A stretch of 32,000 bases of DNA from Geobacter metallireducens GS-15 (GTDB taxonomy: Bacteria; Desulfobacterota; Desulfuromonadia; Geobacterales; Geobacteraceae): positions 3,090,001 to 3,122,000 of the forward strand of contig NC_007517.1 in assembly GCF_000012925.1 (NCBI RefSeq), given 5' to 3'. The notes below the pieces were generated by a model. It was not told the origin of the DNA, did no database searches, and saw only the letters and a list, made by a program, of their open reading frames with translations. This document shows positions 14,080 through 28,315 of the stretch, piece after piece (position 1 is the stretch's first letter; each line of letters starts with the position of its first letter). The translations under genes were made by a program, and so were the position numbers.

Positions 14080-16515
14080 TCATTTTTCTCCTTCCTGCTT
14101 CTTCTCATCCTTGTCGGAAGCGCCGAACATCTTCATGCTTTCAATCATCTCCCGCAGCCGCTTGTCCACCAGGTGGTTGATGCTCTCTTCCGGATAGGTG
14201 CCGTCCTCCTGCCGCTCGCCGGCCGCAACGCCGGTGAGGAGCTCGATCCCCTGGTCAATGGTCTCCACGCTCCAGATGTGAAACTTGCCGTCGCGCACCG
14301 CCTGGACCACCTCGTCGTTCAGCATCAGATGCCGCTCGTTGGATTTGGGGATGATGACCCCCTGCTCGCCCGTGAGTCCCTTGGCCTTGCAGACGGCGTA
14401 GAACCCCTCGATCTTGAAGTTGACGCCGCCGATGGGCTGGATCATGCCGTGCTGGTTGACGCTGCCGGTGACGGCGATCCCCTGCCTGATCGGTACCCCG
14501 GAGAAGGCGGACAACAGGCAGTAGAGCTCGGTGGAGGAGGCGCTGTCCCCCTCGACTCCCTCGTAGTTCTGCTCGAAGCAGATGGAGGCGGAGAACGAGA
14601 GAGGCTTGTCGTGGGCGAACTTCCCCCCCAGGTAGCCGGTGAGGATCAGGACCCCCTTGTCGTGGATGGGTCCCGAGAGCTTCACCTCCCGCTCGATGTT
14701 GACCATGCCGGCCCGTCCGAGATACACCCGGGCCGTGACCCGGGACGGACGGCCAAAGGTGTGGTCTCCCAGGGAGATGACCGACAGGCCGTTGATCTGC
14801 CCCGGCATGGCGCCGTCCACGTCAACGAGGATGGTCCCGTCGTCGAAGAGCTCCTGCATCCGCTCCTCGATCCGGTTGCTCCGGTAGACCTTCTGTTCGA
14901 TGGCGTTGGCCACGTGGGCGTGGGTGACGGGGCCGCCGCCGTCCTTGCCGGCCCAGTAGCTGGCCTCGCGGATGAGGTCGGCGATCTCCATGAACTGGGA
15001 GGAGAGCTTCTCCTGGTCCTCCACCAGCCGGGCCGAGTACTCGATGAGCCCGGCCACGCCGCTGCGGTCGAAGGGGAGGAGCTTCTCGTTCTTGCAGTGG
15101 GTGGAAACGAAGAGGGCATAGTCCTTCAGCACCTCCGGGGTGCGGGCGATGCGGCTGTCGAAATCCACCTTCACCTTGAAGAACTTCCGGTAGTCGGGCT
15201 CCAGGTGGTAGAGGAGGTAGTAGATCCACGGCGAGCCGATCATGATGATCTTGGCCTGGAGGGGTATTGCCTCAGGCTTCATGGAGACGATGGTGATGAA
15301 GCGGTACTGCTCCAGGGGGTCTTCGAACTTGATCTCGGCACTACGGATGCAGCGTTTCAACGCATCCCATGAGTAGGGGTTGACGAGGACCTCGCGGGCG
15401 TCGACGATGAGGTAGCCGCTATTGGCCCTGTGGAGCGCCCCCGGCTTGATCATGGTGAAGTTGGTGGTAGCCGTTCCCCCCATCTGCATGATGTGCTCGG
15501 TGCGACCGAAGAGGTTGCTGTAAGTGGGGTTTGGTTCGAAGACCACCGGCGCCCCTTCGGCGTCATGGTTATCGACGAAGACGTTCACCTGGTAGCGCTC
15601 GAAGGAGGGCTCCTGGCGGGGGAGCTTGAGCCCCGGAATAGGGGACTGGACCTGCTGCTGGGGCTTGAAGTCCTCCAGGTTGGCGATGATGTCCTCCTGA
15701 ACGGTGTTCAGATACTCCAGAACCTTGGGGGACTCACCGTACTTCTCCCGGAGCGGATCGATGTGGTGCCCCACCGAGGCATTGCCCAGGTCCCGGTCCA
15801 GCTGGGCGAGGCTCTCCTTGGTCTGCTTCTCGTTGTCGCGCACCTGGCGAAGCACGTCGTTGAGCTTCTCGGTCAGTTCCTGCCCCCCCTCCTCCAGCTT
15901 CCCCTTCTCCTGGTCGCTAAGGGCCTCGTACTCCTCCTGGGTGTAGTTGCGCTCCTCCTTCTGGGGAACCATGACGAGCCCCGAGACGGTGCGCTGCAGG
16001 GCAAACCCTTTCTCCTGGGCCTCGGCCTCCAGCTGCCCGAACAGCTCGTTGTTCTTCTCCTGGTATGCCTCGACGATGGTGGCCTTGTTGTTCTCGTACT
16101 CCTTGCTGTCCAGGGCCTTGGGGATGATGGAGCGAACCGTGGTGATCAGCTCATCCATGTCCAGGGAAAGCTCGGTCCCCTTCCCTGCCGGCAGCGCCAG
16201 GGCAATGGGGAGGTCAGGGCTCTTGAAGTTGTTGACATAGACCCAGTCGGAAGGGATCGGCTCGGTCTTGGCCTTCTTCTTCAGGATGTTCTTGATGGTA
16301 GAGGTGCGGCCGGTGCCGGCCTCGCCGGTCAGGAAGAGGTTGAAGCCGCTCTCCCGAATGTCGAGACCGAAGTCGATGGAAGCGAGCGCCCGGGCCTGTC
16401 CCAGGGTTCCTTCCAGCTCGGGGAGGTCGTCGGTGGTGGTGAAATCGAACTGACCGGGATCGCAGGTCCAGCGGAGCTGCTCGGGAAGAAGTTTTCTCTG
16501 GCTGGGGAGTGGCAT
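14080..16515 (-). CDS. Lon-like protease (COG1067/LonC-like): AAA-like domain with a coiled-coil insertion, plus a Ser-Lys protease domain
   Basis: P-loop-like LTGEAGTGRTS. A long charged helical insert spans ~res 140-260. The C-terminal Lon protease domain carries GDSASSTELYCLLSA and PIGGVNFKIEG. Confidence 0.85.
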   Translation of the reverse strand: MPLPSQRKLLPEQLRWTCDPGQFDFTTTDDLPELEGTLGQARALASIDFGLDIRESGFNLFLTGEAGTGRTSTIKNILKKKAKTEPIPSDWVYVNNFKSPDLPIALALPAGKGTELSLDMDELITTVRSIIPKALDSKEYENNKATIVEAYQEKNNELFGQLEAEAQEKGFALQRTVSGLVMVPQKEERNYTQEEYEALSDQEKGKLEEGGQELTEKLNDVLRQVRDNEKQTKESLAQLDRDLGNASVGHHIDPLREKYGESPKVLEYLNTVQEDIIANLEDFKPQQQVQSPIPGLKLPRQEPSFERYQVNVFVDNHDAEGAPVVFEPNPTYSNLFGRTEHIMQMGGTATTNFTMIKPGALHRANSGYLIVDAREVLVNPYSWDALKRCIRSAEIKFEDPLEQYRFITIVSMKPEAIPLQAKIIMIGSPWIYYLLYHLEPDYRKFFKVKVDFDSRIARTPEVLKDYALFVSTHCKNEKLLPFDRSGVAGLIEYSARLVEDQEKLSSQFMEIADLIREASYWAGKDGGGPVTHAHVANAIEQKVYRSNRIEERMQELFDDGTILVDVDGAMPGQINGLSVISLGDHTFGRPSRVTARVYLGRAGMVNIEREVKLSGPIHDKGVLILTGYLGGKFAHDKPLSFSASICFEQNYEGVEGDSASSTELYCLLSAFSGVPIRQGIAVTGSVNQHGMIQPIGGVNFKIEGFYAVCKAKGLTGEQGVIIPKSNERHLMLNDEVVQAVRDGKFHIWSVETIDQGIELLTGVAAGERQEDGTYPEESINHLVDKRLREMIESMKMFGASDKDEKKQEGEK

Positions 16516-16580: not shown

Positions 16581-17222
16581 TCAGGGGGCCGGTTCAGCCG
16601 TCTCAAGGAAAGGAAGCCGCTCGTCGAGGAGGAACGGAAACCGCCCGGCCACCGAACGGCGGACGTCACCCAGGGGGACGGGGCGACCGAGGATGGCGGA
16701 GAGAGAGGTGATGGGGCAGGCAACAATGCCGCAGGGGTTGATGGAGCGGAAGGGGGCCAATTCGTTGGTGACGTTGAGGGCGAAACCGTGCATCGTCACC
16801 CAGCGGCGAACGCCGACGCCGATGGAAGCCAGCTTCCCCCCGTCGGTCCAGATGCCGGTGCGGCCTGGTTCGCGGCGGGCGGCGACGCCGAATTCGGCCG
16901 CCACATTGATGAGTAGTTCTTCGAGGATACGGAGGTAGCGGTGAAGGTCGCGGCCACGGCGCCCCAGGTCGATGACGGGGTAGCCGACCAGTTGCCCCGG
17001 CCCGTGGAACGTCACGTCGCCGCCACGGTTGGCTTCCACCACCCGGATTCCGGGGTCGAGCACATTCTCCCGGCAACCGCCCCGACCAATAGTGTAGACC
17101 GGCGGATGCTCCAGGAGGAGAAGCGTCTCCGGCGACGTTCCGGCAGCCACCCCGGCCGCCAGTTGTTCCTGAATGGCCAGCGCCGCCTCGAACTCCAACT
17201 TCCCCAGGTCACGAATCATCAT
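16581..17222 (-). CDS. lipB: Octanoyltransferase (lipoyl(octanoyl) transferase) LipB
   Basis: LLLLEHPPVYTIGRGG, RGGDVTFHGPGQLVGYPV, KLASIGV and HGFALNV are LipB motifs. The start overlaps the upstream kinase stop by 4 nt. Confidence 0.9.
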   Translation of the reverse strand: MMIRDLGKLEFEAALAIQEQLAAGVAAGTSPETLLLLEHPPVYTIGRGGCRENVLDPGIRVVEANRGGDVTFHGPGQLVGYPVIDLGRRGRDLHRYLRILEELLINVAAEFGVAARREPGRTGIWTDGGKLASIGVGVRRWVTMHGFALNVTNELAPFRSINPCGIVACPITSLSAILGRPVPLGDVRRSVAGRFPFLLDERLPFLETAEPAP

Positions 17223-19069
17223 GCCGGGTCGGCGACGTTCGGCGGGACAGGGGGTGTTTCGCTGCCAAGGGTGAATGAGAAGCAGGCGCCTTCCCCGGGC
17301 CTTCCCTCGGCCCGGATGGTACCGCCGTGGCGATGGATGACCCGTTGCACCGTTGTCAGCCCGATGCCGATCCCCTCGAACTCTTCGGCGGAGTGGAGCC
17401 GCTGGAAGGCGCCGAAGAGCTTCCCCACGTACCGCATGTCGAACCCGGCGCCGTTATCGCGGATGAAATACACCGTCTCGCCGTTTGCCTCGGCGGTGCC
17501 GAACTCGATCCGCGCATCCTCCTTGTTGGCGGTGTACTTCCAGGAATTGTGGAGGAGGTTGGTCATGACCACCCCCATCAGCACGGGATCGGCATGCACC
17601 CGGACCCCTTCGGTGATCCTGAAGGCCACGCTGCGGGCAGGTTCGGACAGAGCGAGATCCTCGGCCACCTTGCGTACCATCCGCGACAGGTCGAGGGAAA
17701 CGCGCCTCAGGGGCTCCCGTGACAGCCGCGACAGGTTCAGCAGCGCGTCTATCAGCTGCTCCATCTTGGCGGTGGCCGCTCTGATCCGCTCCAGGTAACC
17801 GTGGGCCTCGTCGTTGATCTCCCGGCAGTAATCTTCCACGAGCAGGGCGCTGTATCCCTCGATATGACGCAACGGAGCCCGCAGGTCATGGGACACCGAA
17901 TAGCAGAAGCTCTCCAGCTCCCGGTTGCTGGCCTCCAGTTGGGCCGTCCGCTCATGGACCCGCCGCTCCAGTTCGGTGTTGAGCCGGCGGATCTCCTCCT
18001 CGCTCCGCAACCGCTGGATGGCAAGGGCCAAAAACTCCGACATCCGGCAGATGGCGTCGAGGTCCGGGTCCGTGTAATCGCGCGGAGGATTGGCGAGGGA
18101 AATCTGGGCGACGAGGGCGTGGCCGAAAACCACCGGCACCGACAGGAACCGGAGAACGGCAATATGCCCCTGCGGCACCCCCTTGGCGGCCCCATGGCGG
18201 GAGGGGTTGTTGGTGTAGAACGGCTTACGCGTGTTGAGGGAGTGCCCCCACAGTCCCCCATAGTGCCCGGCGGCATCGGGTACAAATGCCAGGTTCCTCC
18301 CCGGGGAGGCAAAACAGTCGATTCCCTCCATCATGTCGGTGGTGAGGTTCAACTGCATGACGCCGGTTTCCGACTCGACGATTCCCACGTAACCGTGGTC
18401 GCTCCCGGTCAACTCCTTGGCCTTTTCCAGGACGATGAGCGCTATGTCCCTGAACGTGGCGTAGGTGGAGATGAGGGGGGGATAGAGTTCGGCCAGGGCG
18501 GCATCCACCCGCGCCTGCCACAGCAGCTTCTCGGTCCGCTCCGCCACTTTCCGCTCCAGGTCCTTGTAGAGGAGACTGTTGCGGAGCACGAGGGACAGAA
18601 CGCCCGAAAGCCGTGCCAGGGAGGCGTAGATGGTGTCGAGGCCGGTGCTCTCCATGACCCCCAGCAGCATGAGGACGCCGACCCTTTCACCGCCGGCATC
18701 GAGGGGGAAGACCAGGCTGTCGGATTCTTCCGCCGGGGCGAGAAGCTCCTTCGCCTCCGGCGGGCTCTCCCCGGACGACCAGACAACGGGCCCATGAACG
18801 GCATGGCTTCGTGCGGCAAGACGCCGCAAGGATTCCGGGCGCTCCCCCCCTTGCGCCCGGCCGGGGCAGACACTCACCAGTTCATACGCCGGCCGCTCGG
18901 AAGACGGGACGCACTGCATCAGCGCCACAATCCGCACCCCGATCAGCTCGCGGATCTGCGCCGTGATGTAGCTGCCGCACTCCCCCGGGTTCTCCGCCAG
19001 CCGCAGGACATTCTCCAGCAACTCCACAAAGAGGAAATTCAACGACTTGCGATAGGAGTCGTCACTCAT
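17219..19069 (-). CDS. Cytoplasmic sensor histidine kinase with tandem GAF-like N-terminal domains
   Basis: H-box [20 protein letters not shown]-box MTNLLHNSWKYT, and G-boxes DNGAGFD and GIGIGLTTV. The N-terminal ~380 aa has no TM segment and is GAF-like. I chose the ATG at 19069 (MSDDSYRK...), which overlaps the DUF1638 stop by 8 nt. Confidence 0.85.
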   Translation of the reverse strand: MSDDSYRKSLNFLFVELLENVLRLAENPGECGSYITAQIRELIGVRIVALMQCVPSSERPAYELVSVCPGRAQGGERPESLRRLAARSHAVHGPVVWSSGESPPEAKELLAPAEESDSLVFPLDAGGERVGVLMLLGVMESTGLDTIYASLARLSGVLSLVLRNSLLYKDLERKVAERTEKLLWQARVDAALAELYPPLISTYATFRDIALIVLEKAKELTGSDHGYVGIVESETGVMQLNLTTDMMEGIDCFASPGRNLAFVPDAAGHYGGLWGHSLNTRKPFYTNNPSRHGAAKGVPQGHIAVLRFLSVPVVFGHALVAQISLANPPRDYTDPDLDAICRMSEFLALAIQRLRSEEEIRRLNTELERRVHERTAQLEASNRELESFCYSVSHDLRAPLRHIEGYSALLVEDYCREINDEAHGYLERIRAATAKMEQLIDALLNLSRLSREPLRRVSLDLSRMVRKVAEDLALSEPARSVAFRITEGVRVHADPVLMGVVMTNLLHNSWKYTANKEDARIEFGTAEANGETVYFIRDNGAGFDMRYVGKLFGAFQRLHSAEEFEGIGIGLTTVQRVIHRHGGTIRAEGRPGEGACFSFTLGSETPPVPPNVADPA

Positions 19070-19643
19070 TGAAACCCTCCAGCGCCTTCCTGACGGCATC
19101 GGCCAGGCGATCAGGCGCAACCGCCTTAACCTCCACCGGCAATCCGACGTAACACCCTATCTCCGCAAGGGTTTCCGCAGGCACCGGCACCACTCCCGTA
19201 TCGAGATAGAAGATGCGGCGATGCATCTCCTGCATGAAGAGCCGCGCGCTTTCAGGGGTAACGAAACCAAGCCGCTCCCGGAATACCTCCCGCCAGCGCG
19301 CGGTCCATTCGGGAAGCAGGAAAAAGGCCCCTTCTCTCCGCAACCGCCGGTATTCCTCCCTCCCCAGCACCAGCTCGCAGCAGTTGTGCCCCTTCACCCG
19401 GCAGGCCCCCTCGCGGGACGCAAGCAGGTCCATCCGGGCTTGGCAGTCGCCGAAGAGCAGCACGATGCGCTGTCCGGCGAGGGATTGAACAAGGGCCGTC
19501 AGGGCCTGCTCCAGACGCTCCGGCTCCATGTGGAGCATGGAATCCAGAAACCTCACGGGCCAGGGGAATTTCCCCGCCCGCCCGAGGGCCGCCAGCTCAT
19601 CACGGAAGATGCCGCAGCTGACGACCAGCACATCGGCCGGCAT
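19062..19643 (-). CDS. DUF1638 domain protein
   Basis: VLVVSCGIFRDEL...LDSMLHM.PE.L...LLFGDC...NCCELVLG matches the pattern I associate with DUF1638, which is commonly next to corrinoid methyltransferase genes. The ATG at 19643 has a GAGGGG SD; the track start at 19658 is a GTG. Confidence 0.7.
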   Translation of the reverse strand: MPADVLVVSCGIFRDELAALGRAGKFPWPVRFLDSMLHMEPERLEQALTALVQSLAGQRIVLLFGDCQARMDLLASREGACRVKGHNCCELVLGREEYRRLRREGAFFLLPEWTARWREVFRERLGFVTPESARLFMQEMHRRIFYLDTGVVPVPAETLAEIGCYVGLPVEVKAVAPDRLADAVRKALEGFNE

Positions 19644-19654
19644 GGTTTCGCCCC

Positions 19655-20677
19655 TCACCGCCCGCCTCCGTGCCCCTCGACCGCGGCCCGCACGGCAAGC
19701 AACGTTTCCAGCGGCGTATCGAGGGGAACGTCCGCGGATGACGACGCCAGGACAAAGTGGGGGTCATCCCGGCGGTCGGCAAGGATCGCGGCGGCCCTCG
19801 CCCCTGCCTGTTCCGGGGTAAGCCGGTTCAGGACCGGCCCGTTCAGGTTGCCGAGGATCAGCTTCTCCTCTCCCACGATGGAGCGGGCCGCGGCGAAGCT
19901 GTCGCCGGGGCCGATGACGAACCCCGCCACATTGGGAAGATCCTTCACAAGCGGCAAGAACGGCATGGCCGGGTTGCCCCCGTGATGGAGGATGATGGGG
20001 ATGGGGGTTCGGGCGAAGGCCTGCGCCAGCGGCGGGACGATGGAACGGGAAATGACCTCGGGAGTAACGAGCGTCGGATTTGCCAGCATGAGGGGAATGG
20101 CGATGCAGGCGGCACCTGCCGCGGCCAGTGCCCCGGCCATGGCGGCAAAGTGCTCCGTGGCGGCTGCCAGCACCGTTTCCGCCAGCGCCGGCTCGAAGAG
20201 GAGTGTTTCAAGCCATCCGTCGAGCCCCATGAGCATGGCCGGCAGATCCACCGGCGCGGTGAGGACCCCGGCCAGGGGAACGCTCCCGCAAAAATGGTCC
20301 GCCAGCCGCCGGACGCTCTCGCAAAGGTAGGCAAGGCCGGGACAGGTATCAATGGCGGGAGGGGACAGGGATGCGGCGTCGCGGGGCGCGCGGAAAGGAT
20401 GCCTGCGGACCATGGGGGGACCGTCGGGATGGTAGCGAAGTTCGGCGCCGTATGCCTCGGCCTCCAGGGCCAGGGCGAAGGGTGCGAAGATGATGTCGGG
20501 GGAAACGAGCTCGGCAACCCGCACCTGCCCTTGGGCGTAGAGGGCCGGATCGGCATAGTAGCTGGCCAGGGGGGCGTTGATCAACCGGGCGCCGTAGAGG
20601 CTCAGGGTCAGGGCAAAAGGTGGCCGGTCAGGCTTTTCTCCGGTGAAGACGGCCATGACCCTCTCGGCGGCGGTCAT
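19655..20677 (-). CDS. Uroporphyrinogen-decarboxylase-superfamily protein, MtaA/MT2-like, lacking the Zn-ligand cysteines
   Basis: A 340-aa product starts at MTAAERVMAVFTGEKPDRPPF. The ATG at 20677-20675 overlaps the corrinoid gene's TGA (ATGA). The track's 511-aa version over-extends into the upstream gene. ILHHGGN sits where MT2 enzymes have H-x-C. Confidence 0.75.
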   Translation of the reverse strand: MTAAERVMAVFTGEKPDRPPFALTLSLYGARLINAPLASYYADPALYAQGQVRVAELVSPDIIFAPFALALEAEAYGAELRYHPDGPPMVRRHPFRAPRDAASLSPPAIDTCPGLAYLCESVRRLADHFCGSVPLAGVLTAPVDLPAMLMGLDGWLETLLFEPALAETVLAAATEHFAAMAGALAAAGAACIAIPLMLANPTLVTPEVISRSIVPPLAQAFARTPIPIILHHGGNPAMPFLPLVKDLPNVAGFVIGPGDSFAAARSIVGEEKLILGNLNGPVLNRLTPEQAGARAAAILADRRDDPHFVLASSSADVPLDTPLETLLAVRAAVEGHGGGR

Positions 20678-21384
20678 TGCTCCCCCCCGGCGTCCAGCGA
20701 GCGTTCCCAGAGGGATTTGAAGAGAACAGGCGCATCCATGGCGCTGCCGGCCGTGCCGTCTCCCCCCACCTCCGCCACCAGCTCGGGACGGACCTTGAAA
20801 ACGGCCCCCCCCACCGCAAGCATGATCCTGCCGGAGAGTCCCCGTCGGTCGAGCTCGTCGCGCACCCCGCGGATTCCCCGGGCAGTGACGAACATCATGG
20901 CCGAAACCCCGATAACCCGCGCGCCCGTTTCCACGGCCCGGTCGACGAATTCGGCGGGGCTCACGTCGTTTCCCATGTCGATCACGGCCCATCCGGCTGC
21001 CCGGAGGAAGGTGCCGACCATGCCGCGGCCAAGGGAATGGTAATCGTCCTCGATGTTGCCGATCACCACCGGCCCCTTGACCTCGCCGAACACCCCCTTC
21101 GGGGCGGCGGCCAGGGCCTTGTTCAGGATATCCTCGGCCACCTTCCCGGCCACAAAGCCCTGGGCCAGGGAGATAGCCTCCCGCTCCCACCGGTCGCCCA
21201 CCGTCCGAAGAACCGGCTCAAGGATCTCCGCAATGGCGTCCCCATAGCCGTGAACGGCCGCCCACTGGTCCACGAGACGGCTTGCCCCGTCCCGGTCGGC
21301 ATCGTTGATACGCCGCAACACTTCAGCGACAAGCTTCTGAAGCGTCGTCCCCTCTCCGGTCATATCAGGCATCGGCGCCGCCAT
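20674..21384 (-). CDS. Corrinoid (cobalamin B12-binding domain) protein, MtaC/MtbC-like
   Basis: An N-terminal helical cap domain is followed by a Rossmann-like domain. The B12-binding signature is GNIEDDYHSLGRGMV (DxHxxG), then VIGVSAM and GG. The start could be the ATG at 21384 or 21399. I prefer 21384 given the sigma54 promoter geometry and a GGGGTGA SD. Confidence 0.8.
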   Translation of the reverse strand: MAAPMPDMTGEGTTLQKLVAEVLRRINDADRDGASRLVDQWAAVHGYGDAIAEILEPVLRTVGDRWEREAISLAQGFVAGKVAEDILNKALAAAPKGVFGEVKGPVVIGNIEDDYHSLGRGMVGTFLRAAGWAVIDMGNDVSPAEFVDRAVETGARVIGVSAMMFVTARGIRGVRDELDRRGLSGRIMLAVGGAVFKVRPELVAEVGGDGTAGSAMDAPVLFKSLWERSLDAGGEQ

Positions 21385-21417
21385 GTTCACCCCGTTCATC
21401 GTGGACTACACTAAGCG

Positions 21418-21434
21418 ATGCAAACTAAATGCCA
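21418..21434 (-). promoter_or_regulatory. Sigma54 (-24/-12) promoter upstream of the corrinoid protein gene
   Basis: The minus strand reads TGGCAT-TTAGT-TTGCAT. The consensus is TGGCAC-N5-TTGCW, so the GG and GC elements are correctly spaced. Confidence 0.65.
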
Positions 21435-21438
21435 TAAA

Positions 21439-21455
21439 GTTGCAATTATTGCAAC
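21439..21455. promoter_or_regulatory. Perfect 17-bp palindrome centred on the E2 stop codon
   Basis: GTTGCAAT-T-ATTGCAAC on the forward strand. The E2 TAA (21446-21448) is at its centre. It lies 5 nt upstream of the sigma54 -24 element. Confidence 0.5.
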
Positions 21456-22741
21456 AACATCAGGACAGGTTTTTCAACGATGCGCCGGAACTCCCCGAGG
21501 AACCGGGCCGCGTAGGCGCCGTCAACGATCCGGTGGTCACAGGAGAGGGTCACCCGCATGGTCTTCGCCGCCACCACCCGGCCGTCCCGGACCACCGGGC
21601 GGTCAGCCACGTTCCCCACGGCCAGGATTGCGGCCTGGGGCGGGAAGATCACCGCTGCGAACTCATCGATGCCGAACATCCCCAGGTTCGAGATGCTGAA
21701 CGTACCGCCGGATATCTCCTCCTGGCTGATCCTGCCGCTGCGGGCCCGGTCCGCGAGGCGCACCGTCTCCAGGGCAATCTCCTTCAGAGCGAGCCCCTGG
21801 CACCCCTTCACCACCGGCACCAGGAGGCCGTCGTCCACCGCCACGGCGATCCCGATGTTCACCTCGCAGTGGGTGACGATCCGGTCGCCGGCGAAGGATG
21901 CGTTCAGCCTCGGATACTTTGCCAGGGCCATGGCCGCCGCCTTGACCACGAGATCGTTAAAGGTGACCTCGTTCCCGCTCCCCTTCAGCTCCCGGACGAT
22001 CTCAACCCCCTCCTCCATGGCGATCTCCACCGTCTCGTAGAAGTGGGGGATGGTCTGCCACGCCTGGCTGGTGACGCGGGCAATGGCGCCCCGCATCCGC
22101 GACAGGGGTTCGCCCTCTGCACCCTCGCCGGTGGCGACAGCACTCTCCGGTGCTGGCTTCTCCGTCAGGTACCGCTCCAGATCCTCCTGGAGAATCCTCC
22201 CCTCGGGGCCGCTGCCGGTCACGAGGCTTAGGTCGATCCCCCGCTCCCGCGCCATCCGCCTAACCACGGGGGCAGCCCGCTCACCCTCGCCGCGTTCCGC
22301 TTCCGGCGGGGCCGGTGCGGACGCCTTCTCCTCGGGAAGCTCCATGACCCGCTCCGGCACGTCACCCGCCGGAGCGGCAGGGGTTGCTTCCGGCGTCGGC
22401 TGCGGTTCGGCTTTCTGCGGCGACGGCTTCGACTCCTCCGGCGATGGCTTGGGCTCCTCCGGCGATGGCGTCGGCTTCTCCGGAGCGACTGGGGGAATCT
22501 CCCCGCCCGCGCCGATGACGCCGATCACCGTCCCCACGGCCACCAGCTCCCCCGGTTTCACCCGCTGCTCGGCGAGGGTTCCCGAGGCGAACGCCTCCAG
22601 CTCCATGGTGGCCTTGTCGGTCTCCACCTCGGCGATGATCTCGCCCCGCTCCACTCGCTCGCCCACGCTCTTCTTCCAGGAAACGAGCCGGCCTTCGGTC
22701 ATGGTATCCGAGAGTTTGGGCATGGTGATATCGGTTGGCAT
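21446..22741 (-). CDS. Dihydrolipoamide acyltransferase (E2) of a 2-oxoacid dehydrogenase complex
   Basis: Lipoyl domain (MPKLSDTMTEG...VETDKATMELEA), Pro/Glu/Lys linker, PSBD (AAPVVRRMARERGIDL..V.GSGP.GRI) and catalytic domain with CDHRIVDGA. Confidence 0.95.
   Translation of the reverse strand: MPTDITMPKLSDTMTEGRLVSWKKSVGERVERGEIIAEVETDKATMELEAFASGTLAEQRVKPGELVAVGTVIGVIGAGGEIPPVAPEKPTPSPEEPKPSPEESKPSPQKAEPQPTPEATPAAPAGDVPERVMELPEEKASAPAPPEAERGEGERAAPVVRRMARERGIDLSLVTGSGPEGRILQEDLERYLTEKPAPESAVATGEGAEGEPLSRMRGAIARVTSQAWQTIPHFYETVEIAMEEGVEIVRELKGSGNEVTFNDLVVKAAAMALAKYPRLNASFAGDRIVTHCEVNIGIAVAVDDGLLVPVVKGCQGLALKEIALETVRLADRARSGRISQEEISGGTFSISNLGMFGIDEFAAVIFPPQAAILAVGNVADRPVVRDGRVVAAKTMRVTLSCDHRIVDGAYAARFLGEFRRIVEKPVLMLLQ
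22420..22482. repeat. Three imperfect 21-bp tandem repeats inside the E2 linker
   Basis: The units are gcgacggcttcgactcctccg, gcgatggcttgggctcctccg and gcgatggcgtcggcttctccg. They encode the PEE(P/S)KPS-type linker repeats. Confidence 0.8.
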
Positions 22742-22754
22742 CCGTGCCTCCTTG

Positions 22755-23741
22755 TCAGTATTTCTGACTCATTACGTCCCGAACCGCTGCGGCGATGGTC
22801 TCCACCTGCGGGATGCAGAGCTTCTCGATCTTGCGCGAGTAAGGCATGGGGACGTCGAGCCCCGACACCCGCCGCACCGGCGCCAGGAGCCGGTCGAAGC
22901 ACTCCTCGGCGATGATGGAGGCCAGGTGCCCCCCGAGGCCGGCGGCGCGCCAGCACTCCTCCACCACCACGGCCCGGCCGGTCTTCTGCACCGAGGCAAC
23001 AAAGGTCTCCGTGTCCAGGGGCGCCAGGGTCCGCAGGTCCACCACCTCGCAGGAGCTCCCCTCCTTCTCCAGTTCCGCCGCCGCCTGCAGCGCCAGGATG
23101 GTCATGCGCGAATAGGCGACGATGGTCACATCCTTCCCCTCCCGCTTCACCTCGGCCTTCCCCAGGGGGACCAGGAACTCCGGGTCGTCGGGCACCTCCC
23201 CCTTGCTGTTGTAGAGGAGCTCGTGCTCCAGGAACATCACCGGGTTGTTGTCGCGGATGGAGGCCTTCAGGAGCCCCCGGGCGTCGGCAGGCGTCGCCGG
23301 CACCGCCACATGGATGCCGGGGCAGTGCATGAAGTAGGTTTCCAGGCTCTGGGAGTGCTGGGCCCCCAGCTGGCTCCCACCGCCCCCCGGGGCGCGGACC
23401 ACCATGGGGAGATGGGTCTGCCCCCCGAACATGGAGCTGATCTTGGCCATGTGGTTCACGATCTGGTCCATGGCCAGGAGGGCGAAGTTCACCGTCATCA
23501 GTTCCGCCACGGGCCTCAAGCCACCCATGGCCGCCCCGATGGAGACGCCGATGATGGTGTTCTCGGAGATGGGGGTATCCTTCACCCGCTCCTCGCCGAA
23601 CTCGGCCAGAAGCCCCCGGGTCACCTTGAAGGAGCCCTCGTACAGGGCCACGTCCTCCCCCCAGGCAACCACGGACGGGTCGCGCCGCATCTCTTCTTTC
23701 AGGGCCTTGTTCAGGGCATCGCGGTAGGTCATTTCATGCAT
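22755..23741 (-). CDS. 2-oxoacid (pyruvate/acetoin-type) dehydrogenase E1 beta subunit
   Basis: MTYRDALNKALKEEM...V...GEDV..Y.G.FKVT.GL...FG..RV.DTPISE is the typical transketolase-like E1-beta pattern. An AAGGAGG SD precedes the downstream E2. Confidence 0.95.
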   Translation of the reverse strand: MHEMTYRDALNKALKEEMRRDPSVVAWGEDVALYEGSFKVTRGLLAEFGEERVKDTPISENTIIGVSIGAAMGGLRPVAELMTVNFALLAMDQIVNHMAKISSMFGGQTHLPMVVRAPGGGGSQLGAQHSQSLETYFMHCPGIHVAVPATPADARGLLKASIRDNNPVMFLEHELLYNSKGEVPDDPEFLVPLGKAEVKREGKDVTIVAYSRMTILALQAAAELEKEGSSCEVVDLRTLAPLDTETFVASVQKTGRAVVVEECWRAAGLGGHLASIIAEECFDRLLAPVRRVSGLDVPMPYSRKIEKLCIPQVETIAAAVRDVMSQKY

Positions 23742-23773
23742 GGGAAACCTCCGTTACTATAACGGCTGAGAGC

Positions 23774-23792
23774 ACAGCGGGTTCACCGCTGT
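23774..23792. repeat. Hairpin ACAGCGG-gttca-CCGCTGT at the E1-beta-proximal edge of the low-GC cassette
   Basis: A 7-bp stem with a 5-nt loop, read directly. It shares the core AGCGG(G)TTCAC with the palindrome at 24735-24768. Confidence 0.6.
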
Positions 23793-23836
23793 TGCGCTTG
23801 GTTGAATAGTATTCTGCACCTCATCCTGTTCTGCTA

Positions 23837-24328
23837 CTAATCCATAGAAATGAGTTTCAAAGTTCTCTCCGGCAAAGATTTCTGTCTATTTCCCTCTATA
23901 AGCTCTTCAGTGATTGTTAGCATAAGTTGTGTAAACTTGTTCTGACTTATAAGTTTGTCACGAGTATCAGGGCTGTGCCAAGCCTGCTTTAACAACTCTG
24001 TTGCATGATGGTGAATCATAAGTGCTATTGGTTTTGACATGGATGGGAATTGTTCTAATATTTTAGATTTTGTTTCATCAATACTTTGCAAGAACTCGCT
24101 GAACTGTTTTGTTTTGTGTTGCTCTTCTATTTGTACCCGTACTTTATGCTCTTCAAACCTTGTCTGTAATTCCTCTATTTCATGACGCAATTTCACATCA
24201 GCTAAATCTTTGTCTCTCTTGAGCTTGTTCAAGTCGTCATTGTGTTTTTTTTGCCATTCCAGCGATTCACTCTTGATTGTTTCAAGTAAACCCGCTACGA
24301 AACTTCCGAGATCTTGACCTGCTGACAT
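23837..24328 (-). CDS. Hypothetical soluble coiled-coil protein (163 aa), low-GC cassette gene 2
   Basis: ORF with an AGGAGG SD (aggaggtaagtcATG), 3 nt after gene 1's stop. Lys/Glu-rich heptad-like sequence. I recognise no domain. Confidence 0.7.
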   Translation of the reverse strand: MSAGQDLGSFVAGLLETIKSESLEWQKKHNDDLNKLKRDKDLADVKLRHEIEELQTRFEEHKVRVQIEEQHKTKQFSEFLQSIDETKSKILEQFPSMSKPIALMIHHHATELLKQAWHSPDTRDKLISQNKFTQLMLTITEELIEGNRQKSLPERTLKLISMD

Positions 24329-24331
24329 GAC

Positions 24332-24703
24332 TTACCTCCTAAATTTATTTAGATTCTCATATACGTTCTTAACATTCGAATTTAGTAACACATTGTAAAG
24401 GGAATACAATTTTTGCGCTTTCACTTCATCTACGTATGACTGTACTAAGTTCTCCAAGTCATCAAAAAAGCGCGGAGGAATATCCCTCTGGAATTTGTAC
24501 AATAAAGGCTTAACATATGAGGCTAGTTCATTCATGTTAGCCCGTTGTATCTCTGTTACCTTACCGTCACGTCTATCTTCTTCACGTGATGCGCACTCTT
24601 GGCTGAATTTTTCAAATTTTTGTTTTTGACGTTCCAAGCGAGTCTCTTTCATATAATACCAAACCGCCCAGATGATAATTCCTAAGATGACAATCTCTAA
24701 CAT
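24332..24703 (-). CDS. Hypothetical single-pass membrane protein (123 aa), low-GC cassette gene 1
   Basis: The N-terminal TM helix MLEIVILGIIIWAVWYYM is followed by KETRLERQKQK (positive-inside) and a charged helical cytoplasmic domain. GGAGA SD. I recognise no domain. Confidence 0.7.
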   Translation of the reverse strand: MLEIVILGIIIWAVWYYMKETRLERQKQKFEKFSQECASREEDRRDGKVTEIQRANMNELASYVKPLLYKFQRDIPPRFFDDLENLVQSYVDEVKAQKLYSLYNVLLNSNVKNVYENLNKFRR

Positions 24704-24734
24704 TTCTGTTCATTCTCCAGTTCAACTCGTGATT

Positions 24735-24768
24735 GAGCGGTTCACGCGCGCACGCGCGTGAACCGCTC
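24735..24768. repeat. Perfect 16+16 bp GC-rich palindrome at the distal edge of the low-GC cassette
   Basis: GAGCGGTTCACGCGCG-CA-CGCGCGTGAACCGCTC. There is no adjacent T-tract on either strand. Confidence 0.85.
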
Positions 24769-24789
24769 ATCCTCCCGAATGGAACATTT

Positions 24790-25074
24790 CTACCTGCTCA
24801 TCCCCCACAGCCGAACAAGCATGTCTGTTTTTCGTGAGCCCACACCGTGCCATAGCGAAACAAGTCCGATGTACTCTTCAGTCACTTCGTAGATGATGCA
24901 GTATTTCACCGGGCCGGAATCGACATACAACTCTTTCAGCACCACCTGTTGGCCGGCAAGCAGATAGGGCGCATCGACACCGGCAAAGTTGTTTGCGCAG
25001 AGGAGCTTTTTCCAGCGAACGCTTAAGCGGACGTTTTGCCATTCCGCAGCTCTCTTCTTAAAGTATCGAAGAAT
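24790..25074 (-). pseudogene. ParE/RelE-family toxin-like ORF with no canonical start codon
   Basis: The open frame runs from TGA-TGA-ATT to TAG. It translates as ILRYFKKRAAEWQNVRLSVRWKKLLCANNFAGVDAPYLLAGQQVVLKELYVDSGPVKYCIIYEVTEEYIGLVSLWHGVGSRKTDML... The tail has a ParE-like hydrophobic-strand...H-G...R pattern. No ATG, GTG or TTG occurs before residue ~44. It overlaps the antitoxin 3' end by 52 nt. Confidence 0.45.
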
Positions 25075-25298
25075 TCATCATTTTCCGAAACGACCGTGCC
25101 CAACCCGGAACGAAGTTCGTACCAGCCCCGCTCAACCAAATCGAAGAACTCCTTCTGCTCATCGGCGTGCCGCACGTACATACGCAACGAGTCCCGGAGC
25201 ACGTCCTGCTCGTTGCGTCCTTCCCGTTGAGCAATCCGCTTCAGGTTCATGCTGTCGGTTTCATCAAGCCTGAGCCCCATTTGTCTGCTGCTTCCCAT
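25023..25298 (-). CDS. Ribbon-helix-helix antitoxin, ParD-like
   Basis: The RHH region is MGLRLDETDSMNLKRIAQREGRNEQDVLRDSLRMYV. The C-terminal helical region (ERGWYELRSG...FFDTLRRELR) resembles ParD-type antitoxins. I chose the ATG at 25298, which has a GAAGGTG SD; the track start is 25340. Confidence 0.65.
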   Translation of the reverse strand: MGSSRQMGLRLDETDSMNLKRIAQREGRNEQDVLRDSLRMYVRHADEQKEFFDLVERGWYELRSGLGTVVSENDEFFDTLRRELRNGKTSA

Positions 25299-25336
25299 AC
25301 ATTTCACCTTCCCGGTATCATTAATACCGATACACA

Positions 25337-25780
25337 TCACCGCATACCAGCCGACAAGATATCTATCTCCACTATCCAGAGGGCCAACGTCGGACGATAG
25401 TCAACCGTATGTCGCTGTTTCGCTGTTCGACAGGACAGAGCTAATCGGCGCGAAGTCTTTTTTCCGCGACCGGTCGAGCGCGTTGTCAGGCATGTCTCCC
25501 ATGTTTCGTGGATAGCTTCACGTACCACATCCGTCAGCCTCAATCCTTGAGCAAACTGTCTCAAAGCGTCGTTCATCAGCGTTTGATAGTTACCGCCGAT
25601 TATTTCAGCCCGAGCTTTGAATGTTGCCAGGACGTCGTTGTCAACACGCATCGTTATGCGGGATTTGCCGCCGGTCTCGGCCTGAAATTTCGCCAGGACA
25701 GGCGTTTCACTGACCGGTTCTGCGTCTGTAAAATCAAGGTCTTTGTATTTGTCGTACATTTTGTCAGAACTGACTTTCAT
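25337..25780 (-). CDS. BrnA-type (CopG/RHH) antitoxin with an atypically long C-terminal tail
   Basis: DLDFTDAEPV...PVLAKFQAETGGKSRITMRVDNDVLATFKARAEIIGGNYQTLMNDALRQF is the characteristic BrnA pattern. The ORF then runs ~55 aa further (147 aa in total). Confidence 0.7.
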   Translation of the reverse strand: MKVSSDKMYDKYKDLDFTDAEPVSETPVLAKFQAETGGKSRITMRVDNDVLATFKARAEIIGGNYQTLMNDALRQFAQGLRLTDVVREAIHETWETCLTTRSTGRGKKTSRRLALSCRTAKQRHTVDYRPTLALWIVEIDILSAGMR

Positions 25781-25847
25781 AGCGTCTCCGTTGCGGCTCG
25801 TTGGCCTTCCAGGCTGAGATCAGCCGTATCGTTTCCTCTCTATGACT
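25764..25847 (-). pseudogene. BrnT (DUF497) toxin C-terminal stub
   Basis: The frame reads SHREETIRLISAWKANEPQRRRYESQF*. This matches the BrnT C-terminal pattern ...IR(I/L)ISAR.A...ER..Y. The stop overlaps the brnA start by 17 nt, as in intact brnTA pairs. The upstream ~65 aa of a normal BrnT is absent, because the 168-aa gene ends at 25850. Confidence 0.5.
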
Positions 25848-25849
25848 GT

Positions 25850-26356
25850 TCAGATCTTGCGGCTGTCGTAAGCCCAGTGCAACAATGCCTGGCGCTGTTT
25901 TCTCCGGCAATCCAGGTCTCCCGGAACACAATTCAACCTCAACTGCGCACTATGCCTTCTCATGGCTTTCCACCGGCCGATCTGCCGGGCATCATCCGCA
26001 CATCTCCGCCCCATGAAGTAGCGGCAATACCACTGGAACCACCCCCGGGGGTCTTCGTGATAGATCCACCCCCTGGCCCGCCAGTAGGACAACGGCTTGG
26101 AGGCGTTGACGCCGAAATGGTTCAATTCAGGAACGTGGCGTTCGTGACAGAGCTTGGCATTGGTAAACCACTCTTCAGGAAACTCGTCGATACAGTCTGT
26201 CATGTACTTCCCGCCGAAAACGCCCAGCTCAAGCATCTCCCTTGGCGTCAGTTCGGGCTTGAATTCCGGATGGAAATTCATGCCCACCGGTTCTGACAGC
26301 GTATAGATGTAGTTCCTCTGCATGAGGTCGTCCACGACAACGTATATTTGATCCAT
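25850..26356 (-). CDS. Conserved-looking hypothetical protein (168 aa), family not recognised
   Basis: The ORF has distinctive Trp/Arg-rich motifs (DPRGWFQWYCRYFMGRRCADDARQIGRW). It starts at the ATG at 26356; the track's GTG at 26383 overlaps the upstream stop. Confidence 0.65.
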   Translation of the reverse strand: MDQIYVVVDDLMQRNYIYTLSEPVGMNFHPEFKPELTPREMLELGVFGGKYMTDCIDEFPEEWFTNAKLCHERHVPELNHFGVNASKPLSYWRARGWIYHEDPRGWFQWYCRYFMGRRCADDARQIGRWKAMRRHSAQLRLNCVPGDLDCRRKQRQALLHWAYDSRKI

Positions 26357-26379
26357 GGTCAGTCTCTTTCTGCCACAGT

Positions 26380-27351
26380 TCACACATGGTTGCGCAGCAT
26401 CAGCTCGGCCGGATGAGGCGACAGGTAGTACTGCTGCTGCAGGTAGCTCTGACCGTACTTGCCGACGTAATGCTTCAACAGGGTAAGCGGAACAATGAGG
26501 GGGACCAGCCGGTCGTGATATTCCTTGATGACCCCGAGTAGTTCTTCCTTTTCAGCAGGGCTCAGATCCCGCTTGAAATAGCCCATGATATGCGTCAGCA
26601 CGTTGGTGTTCTTCTTGACCGTGGCATGCAGGGCAAGGGCCTTCATGAAGAGCGCTTCGTAGCTTTGGGCCAGCTCGGGCCAAGACATCCCTTTGCCGTG
26701 CGCCACCAGGCTTCCCATTTCCCGGTAGATGCTGGTGCTGTGGGCCAGGATGAGCAGCTTGTGACGGGCATGGAAAGTCACCAGGTGGCCCAGGTCGGGA
26801 CTGTCCAGCAGGAAATCCTTCCAGCGGCGGTAGCAGAAGATCCGCTCGATGAAATTTTCCCGGATGGCCGCGTCATTGAGCCTCCCCTCTTCCTCTGCCG
26901 GAAGAAGAGGGAAATGCTTGACCACTGCTGCGGCAAACAGGCCGCTGCCGCTCCTGGTCGGCATCCCCTCGTTGTGAACCTTGACCCGAAACAGGCCTGA
27001 ACTGGGGGAATCTTTCTTGAAGATGAAACCGCACAACTCTTCATCCGCCAATTCCGTAACCTTTTGCTTACAGAAGGCGCGCATCTGTTCGGTCTTGTCG
27101 ATGCGGGTCTTGTTCGTCACGAGCCGGGGGTGCTCGGGGTCTCCCTCAAGGCGCATTGCCTCGCGAGGGACCGGCATGCCGCAGCCGACCTCCGGGCAGA
27201 CCGGCACGAAGGTGAAGAACTTGCCCAGTACGTCGGTTATGTAGTGATCGTGCTTGTGGCCGCCGTCATAGCGCACCTTCTCTCCCAGGAGGCAGGAACT
27301 GACGCCAACCTTTATCGGTCTGTTCCAGTTGACCGCCTCAGGCATAAACAT
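26380..27351 (-). CDS. DUF523 (TudS-like 2-thiouracil desulfurase family) fused to DUF1722 (YbgA-like)
   Basis: The N-terminus VGVSSCLLGEKVRYDGGHK...PVCPEVGCGMPVPRE...SPSSG is the DUF523 Cys pattern. The C-terminal half (FHARHKLLILAHS...Y..LG...) is YbgA-like. The ATG at 27351 or 27345 overlaps the E1-alpha stop by 14 or 8 nt. Confidence 0.8.
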   Translation of the reverse strand: MFMPEAVNWNRPIKVGVSSCLLGEKVRYDGGHKHDHYITDVLGKFFTFVPVCPEVGCGMPVPREAMRLEGDPEHPRLVTNKTRIDKTEQMRAFCKQKVTELADEELCGFIFKKDSPSSGLFRVKVHNEGMPTRSGSGLFAAAVVKHFPLLPAEEEGRLNDAAIRENFIERIFCYRRWKDFLLDSPDLGHLVTFHARHKLLILAHSTSIYREMGSLVAHGKGMSWPELAQSYEALFMKALALHATVKKNTNVLTHIMGYFKRDLSPAEKEELLGVIKEYHDRLVPLIVPLTLLKHYVGKYGQSYLQQQYYLSPHPAELMLRNHV

Positions 27352-28315
27352 CTTCCCACACCTCACTATCCTCGGGCCACGGCGAATCCTCGGCAAACTT
27401 CACCGCATCGGCCACCGTCACCAGGGCCTGCTGTTTGATCCCCTCCAGCTGGGCCTCGGTGGCTATCTCTTCCTCCACCAGCCGGTTCGCGAAGGCCGGG
27501 ATGGGGTCGCGGCTCTTCCACAGCTCCACCTCGGCAAGGCTGCGGTATTTGCCCGGATCGGACATGGAGTGCCCCCGGAACCGGTAGGTGATCGCCTCGA
27601 TGAGGAAGGGGCGGTTCTGCTCCCGCACCCACTCGGCCGCCCATTTGACCGCCTCGTACACCGCGATCACGTCCATGCCGTGAACCCGCTCCGACGGGAT
27701 GTCGTAGCCGCAGGTCCGCCGGTGGATGTCAGGGAGTGCCGATGCCCTCTCCACGGAGGTGCCGATGCCGTAACTGTTGTTCTCGCAGATGAAGAGGACC
27801 GGCAGTTCCCAGAGCCGGGCCCAGTTGAGTGATTCGTGGAACGTTCCCTGGTTCGCGGCGCCGTCGCCGAAGAAACAGGCGACGATCCGTCCCTCCTTCC
27901 GGAATTTGGCGGCAAAGGCGAGCCCCACGGCGATGGGGAACTGGCCGCCGACAATGGCGTATCCCCCCATGAAGGAGAGATTCGGGTCGAAGAGGTGCAT
28001 GGAGCCCCCCTTCCCCTTGCAGATGCCGGTCCGCTTGCCGAAGAGCTCGGCCATGACCCGCCGCGGCTCGGCCCCCCGGACGATGGCCTGGGCGTGTTCC
28101 CGGTAGGCGGAGAGGATGTAGTCGTCCCGGTGGAGGCCGGCGGTGGCCCCCACGGCCACGGCCTCCTGGCCGCTGTAGAGGTGGAGGAAGCCGGTGATGT
28201 GCCCCTTGGTGTACTGTTCGGCGCACGACTCCTCGAACTCGCGGGAAAGGACCATCTGTTCGTACATCCTGATAAGTTCGGCGTCGGGGAGAAGGGCGCG
28301 GAGTTTCGATTCCAT
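27338..28315 (-). CDS. 2-oxoacid (pyruvate/acetoin-type) dehydrogenase E1 alpha subunit (TPP-binding)
   Basis: MESKLRALLPDAELIRMYEQMVLSREFEE...GFLHLYSGQEAV...GGSMH...GDGA.NQG...E.LN.A.LW.LPV.F.CENN.Y is the E1-alpha TPP motif pattern. The ATG at 28315 has a GAGG SD. Confidence 0.95.
   Translation of the reverse strand: MESKLRALLPDAELIRMYEQMVLSREFEESCAEQYTKGHITGFLHLYSGQEAVAVGATAGLHRDDYILSAYREHAQAIVRGAEPRRVMAELFGKRTGICKGKGGSMHLFDPNLSFMGGYAIVGGQFPIAVGLAFAAKFRKEGRIVACFFGDGAANQGTFHESLNWARLWELPVLFICENNSYGIGTSVERASALPDIHRRTCGYDIPSERVHGMDVIAVYEAVKWAAEWVREQNRPFLIEAITYRFRGHSMSDPGKYRSLAEVELWKSRDPIPAFANRLVEEEIATEAQLEGIKQQALVTVADAVKFAEDSPWPEDSEVWEDVYA

Follow-up and report, generated by a model that had tools for sequence, protein, structure and literature searches.

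In a 32,000-nucleotide (nt) stretch of the Geobacter metallireducens GS-15 genome (NC_007517.1, positions 3,090,001 to 3,122,000; hereafter the window), four adjacent genes on the minus strand encode a corrinoid protein, a uroporphyrinogen decarboxylase (URO-D)-superfamily protein resembling the methyltransferase MtaA, a DUF1638 protein and a sensor histidine kinase. On balance, we regard these genes as one conserved signalling cassette, in which the first three proteins (hereafter the trio) probably act as the input device of the fourth, a cytoplasmic sensor protein. We put forward more tentatively a specific version of this reading, in which methylation, demethylation or oxidation of the cobalt would be relayed by the trio as a conformational signal to a dedicated GAF domain, with methyl-corrinoid chemistry serving signalling, not metabolism. 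The cassette is apparently undescribed so far; we found no description of it in the searchable literature, including papers that name DUF1638 (PF07796).

All three genes of the trio were confirmed by Pfam between positions 19062 and 21399 of the minus strand, where the original prediction had placed them, and the motifs it had read there, DxHxxG (DDYHSLG), HHGGN and SSSADVPLDTP, are all present. Its neighbour assignments were likewise borne out by Pfam and NCBIfam, with an E2 subunit gene upstream and the GAF kinase and LipB downstream. Start and stop codons overlap at each junction of the four cassette genes (ATGA, GTGA and 8 nt), an arrangement for translational coupling. The corrinoid protein has 241 amino acids (aa) as the longest open reading frame (ORF), and its true start may be any of M6-M13. 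The kinase carries HisKA (1.2e-10) and HATPase_c (6.5e-18) and qualifies as a two-component sensor histidine kinase. Its start is probably the ATG at 19069, which gives the 8-nt overlap with the DUF1638 stop, while the longest ORF begins at a TTG at 19120; the orthologues in G. sulfurreducens and G. grbiciae have 614-616 aa. The URO-D-like and corrinoid proteins keep their folds and motifs and appear functional, not decayed.

To establish how widely the cassette occurs, one genome per species (GTDB) was scanned with the URO-D-like family. This survey gave 76 loci, 65 of them with enough flanking DNA; L-numbers below denote these and further loci. The order corrinoid, URO-D-like, DUF1638 and GAF-X protein, where GAF-X is our working label for the cassette-specific N-terminal sensor domain of the kinase, is complete in 59 of these 65, and the loci without the full order mostly belong to distant subfamilies. 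Searches by tblastn with the window proteins located the trio in nearly all 76 loci, with the kinase match next to it. When ORFs from the 76 loci were clustered de novo, the four cassette families, found in 76, 70, 64 and 64 loci, were the sole near-universal ones; the next commonest family, an ABC ATPase, occurs in 19 loci, in varying positions and orientations.

The carriers span at least nine phyla. The bacterial ones belong to Desulfobacterota, Spirochaetota, Bacteroidota, Nitrospirota, Chloroflexota, Planctomycetota, Acidobacteriota (Geothrix) and Pseudomonadota (Accumulibacter, Thiodiazotropha), and the archaeal carrier is a Methanoperedens (Methanoperedenaceae) archaeon. Judged by record titles, almost all are anaerobes or microaerophiles. 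The genes that follow the cassette encode chiefly receiver proteins (18 of 70) and additional kinases. Across the surveyed loci there is no consistent metabolic neighbour that would name a substrate, and neither the window nor seven diverse loci contain a riboswitch or other Rfam RNA.

The conserved neighbours of the 76 loci include no substrate-specific methyltransferase (MT1), no pterin methyltransferase and no RamA/RACE (DUF4445-like) activase, and a Pfam scan of the window's 28 plausible genes gave no match to the MT1-type families MttB, MtaB and MtgB. The original prediction had noted the missing MT1 and called it unusual. The absence holds, in the window and across the survey, but is no anomaly on its own, since URO-D enzymes of the MtsA type (the MtsA/MtsB system) perform both half-reactions.

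The linkage also runs in the opposite direction. In a reverse look-up of six proteins found independently, by a library-wide search with GAF-X alone, genes for B12-binding, URO-D and DUF1638 proteins lie directly upstream in five, one of these being a contig end that shows URO-D alone; the protein without the trio is the weakest GAF-X match. Furthermore, neighbouring components occur as single polypeptides (P-numbers denote individual proteins). URO-D is fused to DUF1638 in P0003, and DUF1638 is fused to GAF-X and the kinase in P0156, P0206, P0207 and P0209. Together, the conserved gene order, the reverse linkage and the fusions strongly favour one of the options raised at the outset, in which a regulatory or sensory device dependent on B12 feeds the kinase next to it.

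Kinases also occur on the other side of the cassette. The gene immediately before the corrinoid gene often encodes a second histidine kinase (L004 8340-9290, L031 8228-8980, L077 7055-9322 and L080 318-3726), of the CHASE type in a Geobacter sister lineage and of the dCache type in G. sulfurreducens, and the cassette is frequently flanked by kinases on both sides. On L078, a G. sulfurreducens-like metagenome contig, one ORF of 982 aa (3393-6341) spans both the upstream dCache-PAS kinase and the corrinoid protein, through either a genuine fusion or an error in sequencing; in the reference-like genome L077 (7055-10004) they are two genes 1 nt apart.

Within the kinase, GAF-X is the only part conserved beside the trio. 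It comprises the unannotated first ~170 residues, and the tblastn match to the kinase covers only residues ~5-200. The proposed link to a GAF kinase is correct as regards the kinase, but the linked part is this N-terminal segment and not the Pfam GAF domain at residues 222-369. No Pfam GAF, GAF_2, GAF_3 or other model matches kinase residues 1-220 at E<=0.01, and the stand-alone GAF-X members P0127 and P0188 matched no family. An AlphaFold2 model of GAF-X reached a predicted local distance difference test (pLDDT) score of 90.2, and its top 50 Foldseek matches in the PDB are nearly all GAF domains, with a few LuxR-type ligand-binding domains (template modelling (TM) scores 0.46-0.68, E ~1e-5). 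Because the model matches almost only GAF domains, at modest TM scores, GAF-X is predicted to be a divergent GAF domain.

Invariant positions in GAF-X are R40, P69, P122 and G131, and R71 is nearly invariant (numbering from the M at 19069). The Cys of its PGxCA motif was considered as a methyl acceptor or heme ligand and ruled out, being missing in several members. An exhaustive phmmer search with GAF-X found 491 representatives at E<=1e-3 among 1.84 billion, with the domain nearly always N-terminal; word-indexed searches with a single sequence or a 58-sequence profile returned nothing, a limit of the index.

What follows GAF-X is far less uniform. Among 58 downstream sensor proteins, HATPase_c is present in 53, HisKA in 35, HisKA_2/HWE in 19 and a receiver domain in 25. 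GAF-X is the sole sensor domain of ~400-aa spirochaete kinases, and it also heads two other kinds of protein encoded directly behind the trio, an HD-GYP protein of the cyclic-di-GMP phosphodiesterase type (L088 5001-8129) and a kinase-less GAF-PocR-PAS protein (L086 5001-8186). Constancy of the input combined with such variety of output marks a sensory module.

These observations bear on the main rival to the input-module reading, in which the trio would be a small orphan methyltransferase or detoxification system for some methylated or methylatable compound, and the kinase would bind that compound directly through GAF-X and control expression of the operon. Genes for sensors often neighbour those of the enzymes under their control, and the Methanosarcina kinases MsmS and RdmS do regulate methyl-sulfide methyltransferase genes (PMC6944256). 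However, a regulator beside its target would hardly explain the DUF1638+GAF-X+kinase fusions, nor an N-terminal domain that stays constant while outputs vary (HisKA, HWE, HD-GYP) with no DNA-binding response regulator conserved nearby. GAF domains usually bind small molecules, the invariant and nearly invariant Arg of GAF-X could hold an anionic ligand, and a set of residues resembling an active site is fully conserved in the URO-D-like protein, all of which would suit such an arrangement. Against this, the trio would be a half-pathway that lacks the second methyltransferase and the activase in 76 loci, and its coupling to the sensor is near-obligate (59/65 loci, and 5/6 in reverse). We therefore consider this explanation unlikely, although it is the one that must be taken most seriously.

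The URO-D-like protein matches PF01208 with 196 bits. It falls below the cut-offs of the NCBIfam models for MtaA, MtbA and CmuA (TIGR01463, 68 against 235 bits; NF040654, 61 against 400 bits; NF041608, 51 against 600 bits; NF004889, 85 against 244 bits). In a PDB search with a profile of 30 family members, the closest solved protein is Methanosarcina mazei MtaA (4AY7, E 7e-19), and true uroporphyrinogen decarboxylases trail at E 9e-06 or weaker. The AlphaFold2 model (pLDDT 93.8) is a URO-D-type (beta/alpha)8 barrel whose best Foldseek match is likewise 4AY7 (TM 0.87, E 3.8e-20), with UroD structures also matched at TM ~0.8. A UroD-like decarboxylase (HemE) was ruled out on the PDB E-values for MtaA and UroD, and no HemE NCBIfam model matched at E<=0.01.

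Alignment to 4AY7 places LH231-H232-G233-GN of the URO-D-like protein opposite LH247-I-C249-GN of MtaA, and LASSS314A315D316VPLDTP opposite LAPGC325GIAPMTP. The C-terminus of MtaA was reached with a peptide query; a PDB search using the C-terminal third of the URO-D-like protein missed MtaA. None of the 30 members of the family alignment has a Cys at either zinc-ligand position, while 34 positions are invariant, H231, H232 and D316 among them. Both alignments confirm the original claim that the MtaA-type zinc ligands are lost. The H-x-C...C zinc-thiolate site is not merely lost but replaced by an invariant His-His...Asp set. The further claim that zinc-mediated thiol activation looks impossible stands as far as the zinc-thiolate site is concerned, but it does not follow that there is no metal site, because the invariant His-His...Asp set takes the place of the lost ligands.

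A distant, paralogous second cassette type occurs in L002 (15250-19539, minus strand) and L007 (1457-3962, plus strand), with a corrinoid protein and a URO-D-like protein that is only 24-26% identical and reads VYYCGG at this site. In L002, the URO-D-like protein (26% identical) is accompanied by DUF1638 (17223-18011) and by a kinase with an unannotated N-terminus of ~245 aa; in L007, a 268-aa protein without a Pfam match comes next instead. The corrinoid/URO-D-like theme may be wider than the HHGGN family.

The corrinoid protein consists of a B12-binding_2 cap and a B12-binding Rossmann domain, and Pfam detects no MerR or other DNA-binding domain in it. Its cobalamin-binding motifs DxHxxG, SxL/M and GG are kept, with D119, H121, G124, S166 and G197-G198 at least 90% conserved in 71 cassette copies. 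The best NCBIfam match is TIGR02370, the methyltransferase cognate corrinoid protein, at 91 bits against a cut-off of 215; MtbC (81 against 350 bits) and MtgC (76 against 310 bits) also fall below cut-off, and the CarH model scores 48.5 bits against 400. The best PDB matches are corrinoid proteins of Moorella and Desulfitobacterium, MttC and MtmC, including 1y80 and 4jgi. By these scores (91 against 48.5 bits), the protein is closer to methyltransferase corrinoid proteins than to CarH.

In 65 cassette copies of DUF1638, the conserved residues are C15, H43, D71-C72, N92-C93 and P116-E117-W118. C15, H43, C72 and C93, together with a PEW...RW motif, are also kept in distant paralogues and in the fusion proteins. 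Such a Cys3-His set may suit a metal or iron-sulfur cluster site; a PDB search found no solved relative. In the three-part split B12-dependent methionine synthase, DUF1638 is genetically required together with a RamA-like activase, and its gene adjoins that of a stand-alone B12-binding protein (PMC5764234). DUF1638 has also been predicted to take part in recharging cobalamin (PMC12478193).

Another reading keeps the cassette but changes the signal, making it a sensor for redox state, oxygen or light that involves no external methyl substrate. Here the low-potential, oxidant- and light-labile Co(I)/methyl-Co(III) would itself do the sensing and the kinase would read Co(II), with the MtaA-like protein and DUF1638 merely resetting the cofactor by re-methylation and re-reduction. 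Such a device would fit the anaerobic or microaerophilic habit of almost all carriers, and the predicted recharging role of DUF1638 (PMC12478193), whose Cys3-His motif could hold a metal or cluster, would supply the reset. B12-binding domains with this cap are light sensors elsewhere, as the match to the CarH model and the B12-binding GGDEF protein 8j2y in the PDB recall, but the CarH score is far below its cut-off. In addition, the invariant His-His...Asp site points to a genuine substrate, other loci do not consistently have stress genes next to the cassette, and the case is indirect throughout. We regard this version as unlikely.

Another possibility is that the cassette senses the availability of cobalamin, with the apo or holo state of the corrinoid protein controlling the kinase and the URO-D-like and DUF1638 proteins loading or processing the cofactor. 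URO-D-fold proteins do bind tetrapyrroles, in keeping with the UroD matches of the model, and DUF1638 accompanies stand-alone B12-binding proteins. The URO-D-like protein is, however, nearer to MtaA than to UroD in the profile search, and neither a cobalamin riboswitch nor a conserved gene for B12 transport or synthesis travels with the cassette. This makes the explanation very unlikely.

The reading we prefer, a corrinoid input module for sensor proteins, can be set out as a provisional mechanism. The corrinoid protein, the MtaA-like barrel and DUF1638 would together form the input to the sensor protein, which would recognise them by its dedicated N-terminal GAF-fold domain and relay the signal to its own output part, in this case that of a GAF-HisKA-HATPase kinase; we infer this direction of information flow. 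The MtaA-like protein would bind the corrinoid protein as MtaA binds MtaC, and would let the cobalt exchange a methyl group with a small molecule other than a zinc-activated thiol, bound at the His-His...Asp set. DUF1638 would service or hold the corrinoid protein and could form the physical bridge to GAF-X. The GAF domain would then switch the kinase according to the state of the carrier, whether methyl-Co(III), Co(I) or oxidised Co(II). In this way, the cassette could signal how much methyl donor or acceptor is available, or the presence of any agent destructive to the reduced cofactor; candidate signals are a methyl donor or acceptor, redox state or oxygen, and light.

Several points weigh against this mechanism. 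The evidence is comparative throughout, methyl transfer is assumed from homology to MtaA only, and neither the cassette nor its surroundings encode a methyl donor, an acceptor or a reductive activase. A sensor gene at the end of an enzyme operon is also the normal layout of a regulator with its target. The putative catalytic site varies by subfamily, reading HHG in the core family, YYC in L002 and L007 and SGT in Geomonas. Because it differs in this way, the barrel may be a (state-specific) binding partner and not an enzyme. Finally, the corrinoid and URO-D-like proteins of G. sulfurreducens were undetected in proteomes from four electron-donor regimes (PMC7894505).

In the window, the cassette lies among genes for a pyruvate dehydrogenase (PDH)-type complex and LipB, and the original prediction had treated the trio as embedded in a lipoate-dependent dehydrogenase operon. 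This part of it did not survive comparison. The order E1beta-E2-cassette-LipB-LonC is shared only with G. grbiciae, whose sequence is 95% identical. In G. sulfurreducens (L077), the cassette sits between a dCache kinase and the trp operon, without PDH or LipB. The sister lineage (~75% identical, L080-L082) reads aconitase-small-subunit gene, CHASE kinase, CHASE kinase, cassette and LonC, again with neither PDH nor LipB. Over the whole survey, the PDH/LipB linkage is absent in 75 of the 76 loci, the exception being one E1-like pair on the opposite strand.

A comparison with L080 by blastn shows that window positions 21310-28390 (7.1 kb, from E1alpha to E2) replace 655 bp of the sister lineage, and that the replaced segment includes the HATPase end of the second CHASE kinase. 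The truncated kinase left in the window (28372-29592) stops 11 nt before E1alpha, whereas its intact 563-aa orthologue in L080 directly precedes the cassette. This neighbour being truncated here and intact in the sister lineage, the PDH block is therefore the insertion, recent and local, with the truncated CHASE kinase marking its upstream edge. The lipB gene lies within a separate window-specific segment of 653 bp (16607-17259) that is absent from the sister lineage (blastn, L082). From this synteny, the PDH E1/E2 genes and lipB appear to have been inserted around a pre-existing cassette in one Geobacter lineage and would not be part of its mechanism.

A role with or on a lipoate-dependent dehydrogenase, metabolic and tied to PDH and LipB, is hardly tenable on this evidence and looks already largely refuted by synteny. 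It draws on the position of the cassette, which E2 and lipB flank both here and in G. grbiciae, on the overlap of the kinase stop codon with the lipB ATG (ATGA), and on the lack of any terminator-like site between E2, the cassette and lipB in the window. Elsewhere, including G. sulfurreducens and the sister lineage, PDH and LipB are absent, and the PDH block is an insertion that destroyed a gene. E2, the cassette and lipB are likely co-transcribed in this lineage, which is not part of the cassette's general biology. The second lipoate-related insertion beside the same cassette hints at selection for co-expression here. For the redox or oxygen sensor considered above, it may matter that the lineage acquired the oxygen-tolerant PDH and LipB as cassette neighbours, along with a Lon-like protease; a switch from the oxygen-sensitive pyruvate:ferredoxin oxidoreductase would presumably need such genes.

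Other features of this region are peripheral to the cassette. About 3.6 kb of unrelated genes (23742-27337), including a 177-aa ORF of unknown function, split E1alpha from E1beta and look like secondary insertions into the inserted operon. They include an islet of 42% G+C with two small ORFs (23837-24703), in a genome of ~64% G+C. Taken as longest ORFs, E1alpha and the DUF523/DUF1722 gene share 59 nt, and the TTG at which the latter then begins probably lies too far upstream. Neither E3 (lpdA) nor lipA is present in the window. The 46-nt spacer between E2 and the corrinoid gene holds TGGCATTTAGTTTGCA (21419-21434, minus strand), a near-perfect sigma-54 -24/-12 match and the only one in the window (0.01 expected). 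G. grbiciae has a mutated -12 element, and the other 71 corrinoid genes have no comparable site upstream; the match was not used as evidence. Coordinates are collected in Table 1.

Table 1. Features of the cassette and its surroundings, in window coordinates.
Feature	Positions	Strand	Details
Corrinoid (cobalamin-binding) protein	20674-21399	-	Pfam B12-binding_2 3.8e-08, B12-binding 3.3e-20
DxHxxG motif of corrinoid protein	21028-21045	-	DDYHSLG 21028-21048
URO-D-superfamily MtaA-like TIM-barrel protein	19655-20677	-	340 aa, ATG at 20677, PF01208 8.9e-58
HHGGN of URO-D-like protein	19973-19987	-	H231-H232-G233
SSSADVPLDTP of URO-D-like protein	19712-19744	-	Contains S314-A315-D316
DUF1638 protein	19062-19658	-	198 aa, PF07796 1.5e-31, 109.9 bits against gathering score 27
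Sensor histidine kinase	17219-19069	-	GAF-X, GAF_2, HisKA, HATPase_c (Pfam)
GAF-X domain	18509-19069	-	~170 aa and start of signalling helix; without Pfam match
GAF_2 of kinase	~18014-18457	-	
HisKA of kinase	~17720-17911	-	
HATPase_c of kinase	~17267-17590	-	
LipB octanoyl/lipoyl transferase	16581-17222	-	NCBIfam LipB 200 bits against cut-off 155; outside cassette
LonC-like protease	14080-16515	-	
PDH-type E2	21446-22741	-	
PDH-type E1beta	22755-23741	-	
BrnA-like antitoxin	25337-25780	-	With 105-aa partner
DUF523/DUF1722 (2-thiouracil desulfurase family) gene	26380-27396	-	
PDH-type E1alpha	27338-28360	-	
CHASE-HisKA kinase, second, truncated	28372-29592	-	406 aa, without HATPase_c
CHASE kinase, first of two	29614-31305	-	
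Aconitase-small-subunit gene	31329-31931	-	

The cassette is also present in G. sulfurreducens PCA (AAR35757-AAR35760, with AAR35757 the kinase and AAR35759 the URO-D-like protein), a genetically tractable strain in which the hypothesis is directly testable. The only published comment that we found on the orthologues concerns this species, where GSU2386 and GSU2387 were suggested to serve an acetyl-CoA pathway (PMC7894505). On that account, the corrinoid and URO-D-like proteins would work in a Wood-Ljungdahl-like pathway with CO dehydrogenase. Our survey gives the suggestion no support and leaves it next to no probability: no gene for CO dehydrogenase/acetyl-CoA synthase, a corrinoid iron-sulfur protein or a pterin methyltransferase is linked in any locus, the obligate partner is a kinase, and the proteins were undetected under autotrophic-like conditions (PMC7894505).

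If the input-module reading is right, cytoplasmic sensor kinases and at least one HD-GYP protein take their input from vitamin-B12 chemistry, in hosts as varied as sulfate reducers, Geobacter, spirochaetes, Bacteroidales, Anaerolineae, Accumulibacter and Methanoperedens. To our knowledge, no such input is known for two-component systems. The cassette gives DUF1638 a second, independent context beyond split methionine synthase, so far its only known one, beside a stand-alone corrinoid protein and sometimes fused to a sensor, which narrows its role to servicing or reading corrinoid proteins; the proposed mechanism would be the first for this family. The analysis also delimits a subfamily of GAF domains, ~500 clusters at 50% identity, for which Pfam lacks a model, and corrects the annotation of genes read as uroporphyrinogen decarboxylase, methanogen-type methyltransferases or acetyl-CoA-pathway parts.

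Among known systems, MtaA/MtaC and MtbA of methanogens share with the cassette a URO-D-type TIM barrel beside a cap-plus-Rossmann corrinoid protein with DxHxxG. MtaA, however, has the H-x-C...C zinc site and an MT1 partner, whereas the cassette proteins score far below the family cut-offs, live mostly in bacteria and have DUF1638 and a sensor protein as partners. From the alignments and scores, the cassette would work partly like MtaA/MtaC but falls outside it on the zinc site and the family cut-offs. The type 1 mlp clusters resemble it as widespread orphan clusters of anaerobes that combine MtaA-like and corrinoid proteins without an H4folate methyltransferase, but they encode a Ram/RACE activase together with two or three different Mlps and occur mostly in Firmicutes (PMC10418091). 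The cassette has a single URO-D-like gene, DUF1638 where they have RACE, and a sensor gene, and is not a type 1 mlp cluster. The split methionine synthase of Phaeobacter inhibens likewise places a stand-alone B12-binding cap-plus-Rossmann protein beside DUF1638 (PMC5764234). Its partners are homocysteine- and folate-binding methyltransferase parts and a RamA-like activase, and its output is methionine; the cassette instead has a zinc-less MtaA-like barrel, no RamA-like gene nearby and a kinase as output.

On the signalling side, MsmS and RdmS of Methanosarcina acetivorans are multi-GAF kinases tied to corrinoid and MtaA-like methyltransferases, and they sense redox state and dimethyl sulfide (PMC6944256). 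Heme or thiols within the GAF domains of these kinases do the sensing, and their targets are the methyltransferase genes, whereas GAF-X has no invariant Cys and the cassette always includes DUF1638, sometimes fused to the sensor. CarH, AerR and the B12-binding GGDEF protein 8j2y use a cobalamin-binding cap-plus-Rossmann module for signalling, as we propose for the cassette. Unlike it, they are single proteins whose B12 domain is fused to the output or binds it directly, with neither a methyltransferase-like protein nor DUF1638. The cassette differs from both MsmS/RdmS and the B12 photoreceptors in needing three accessory proteins.

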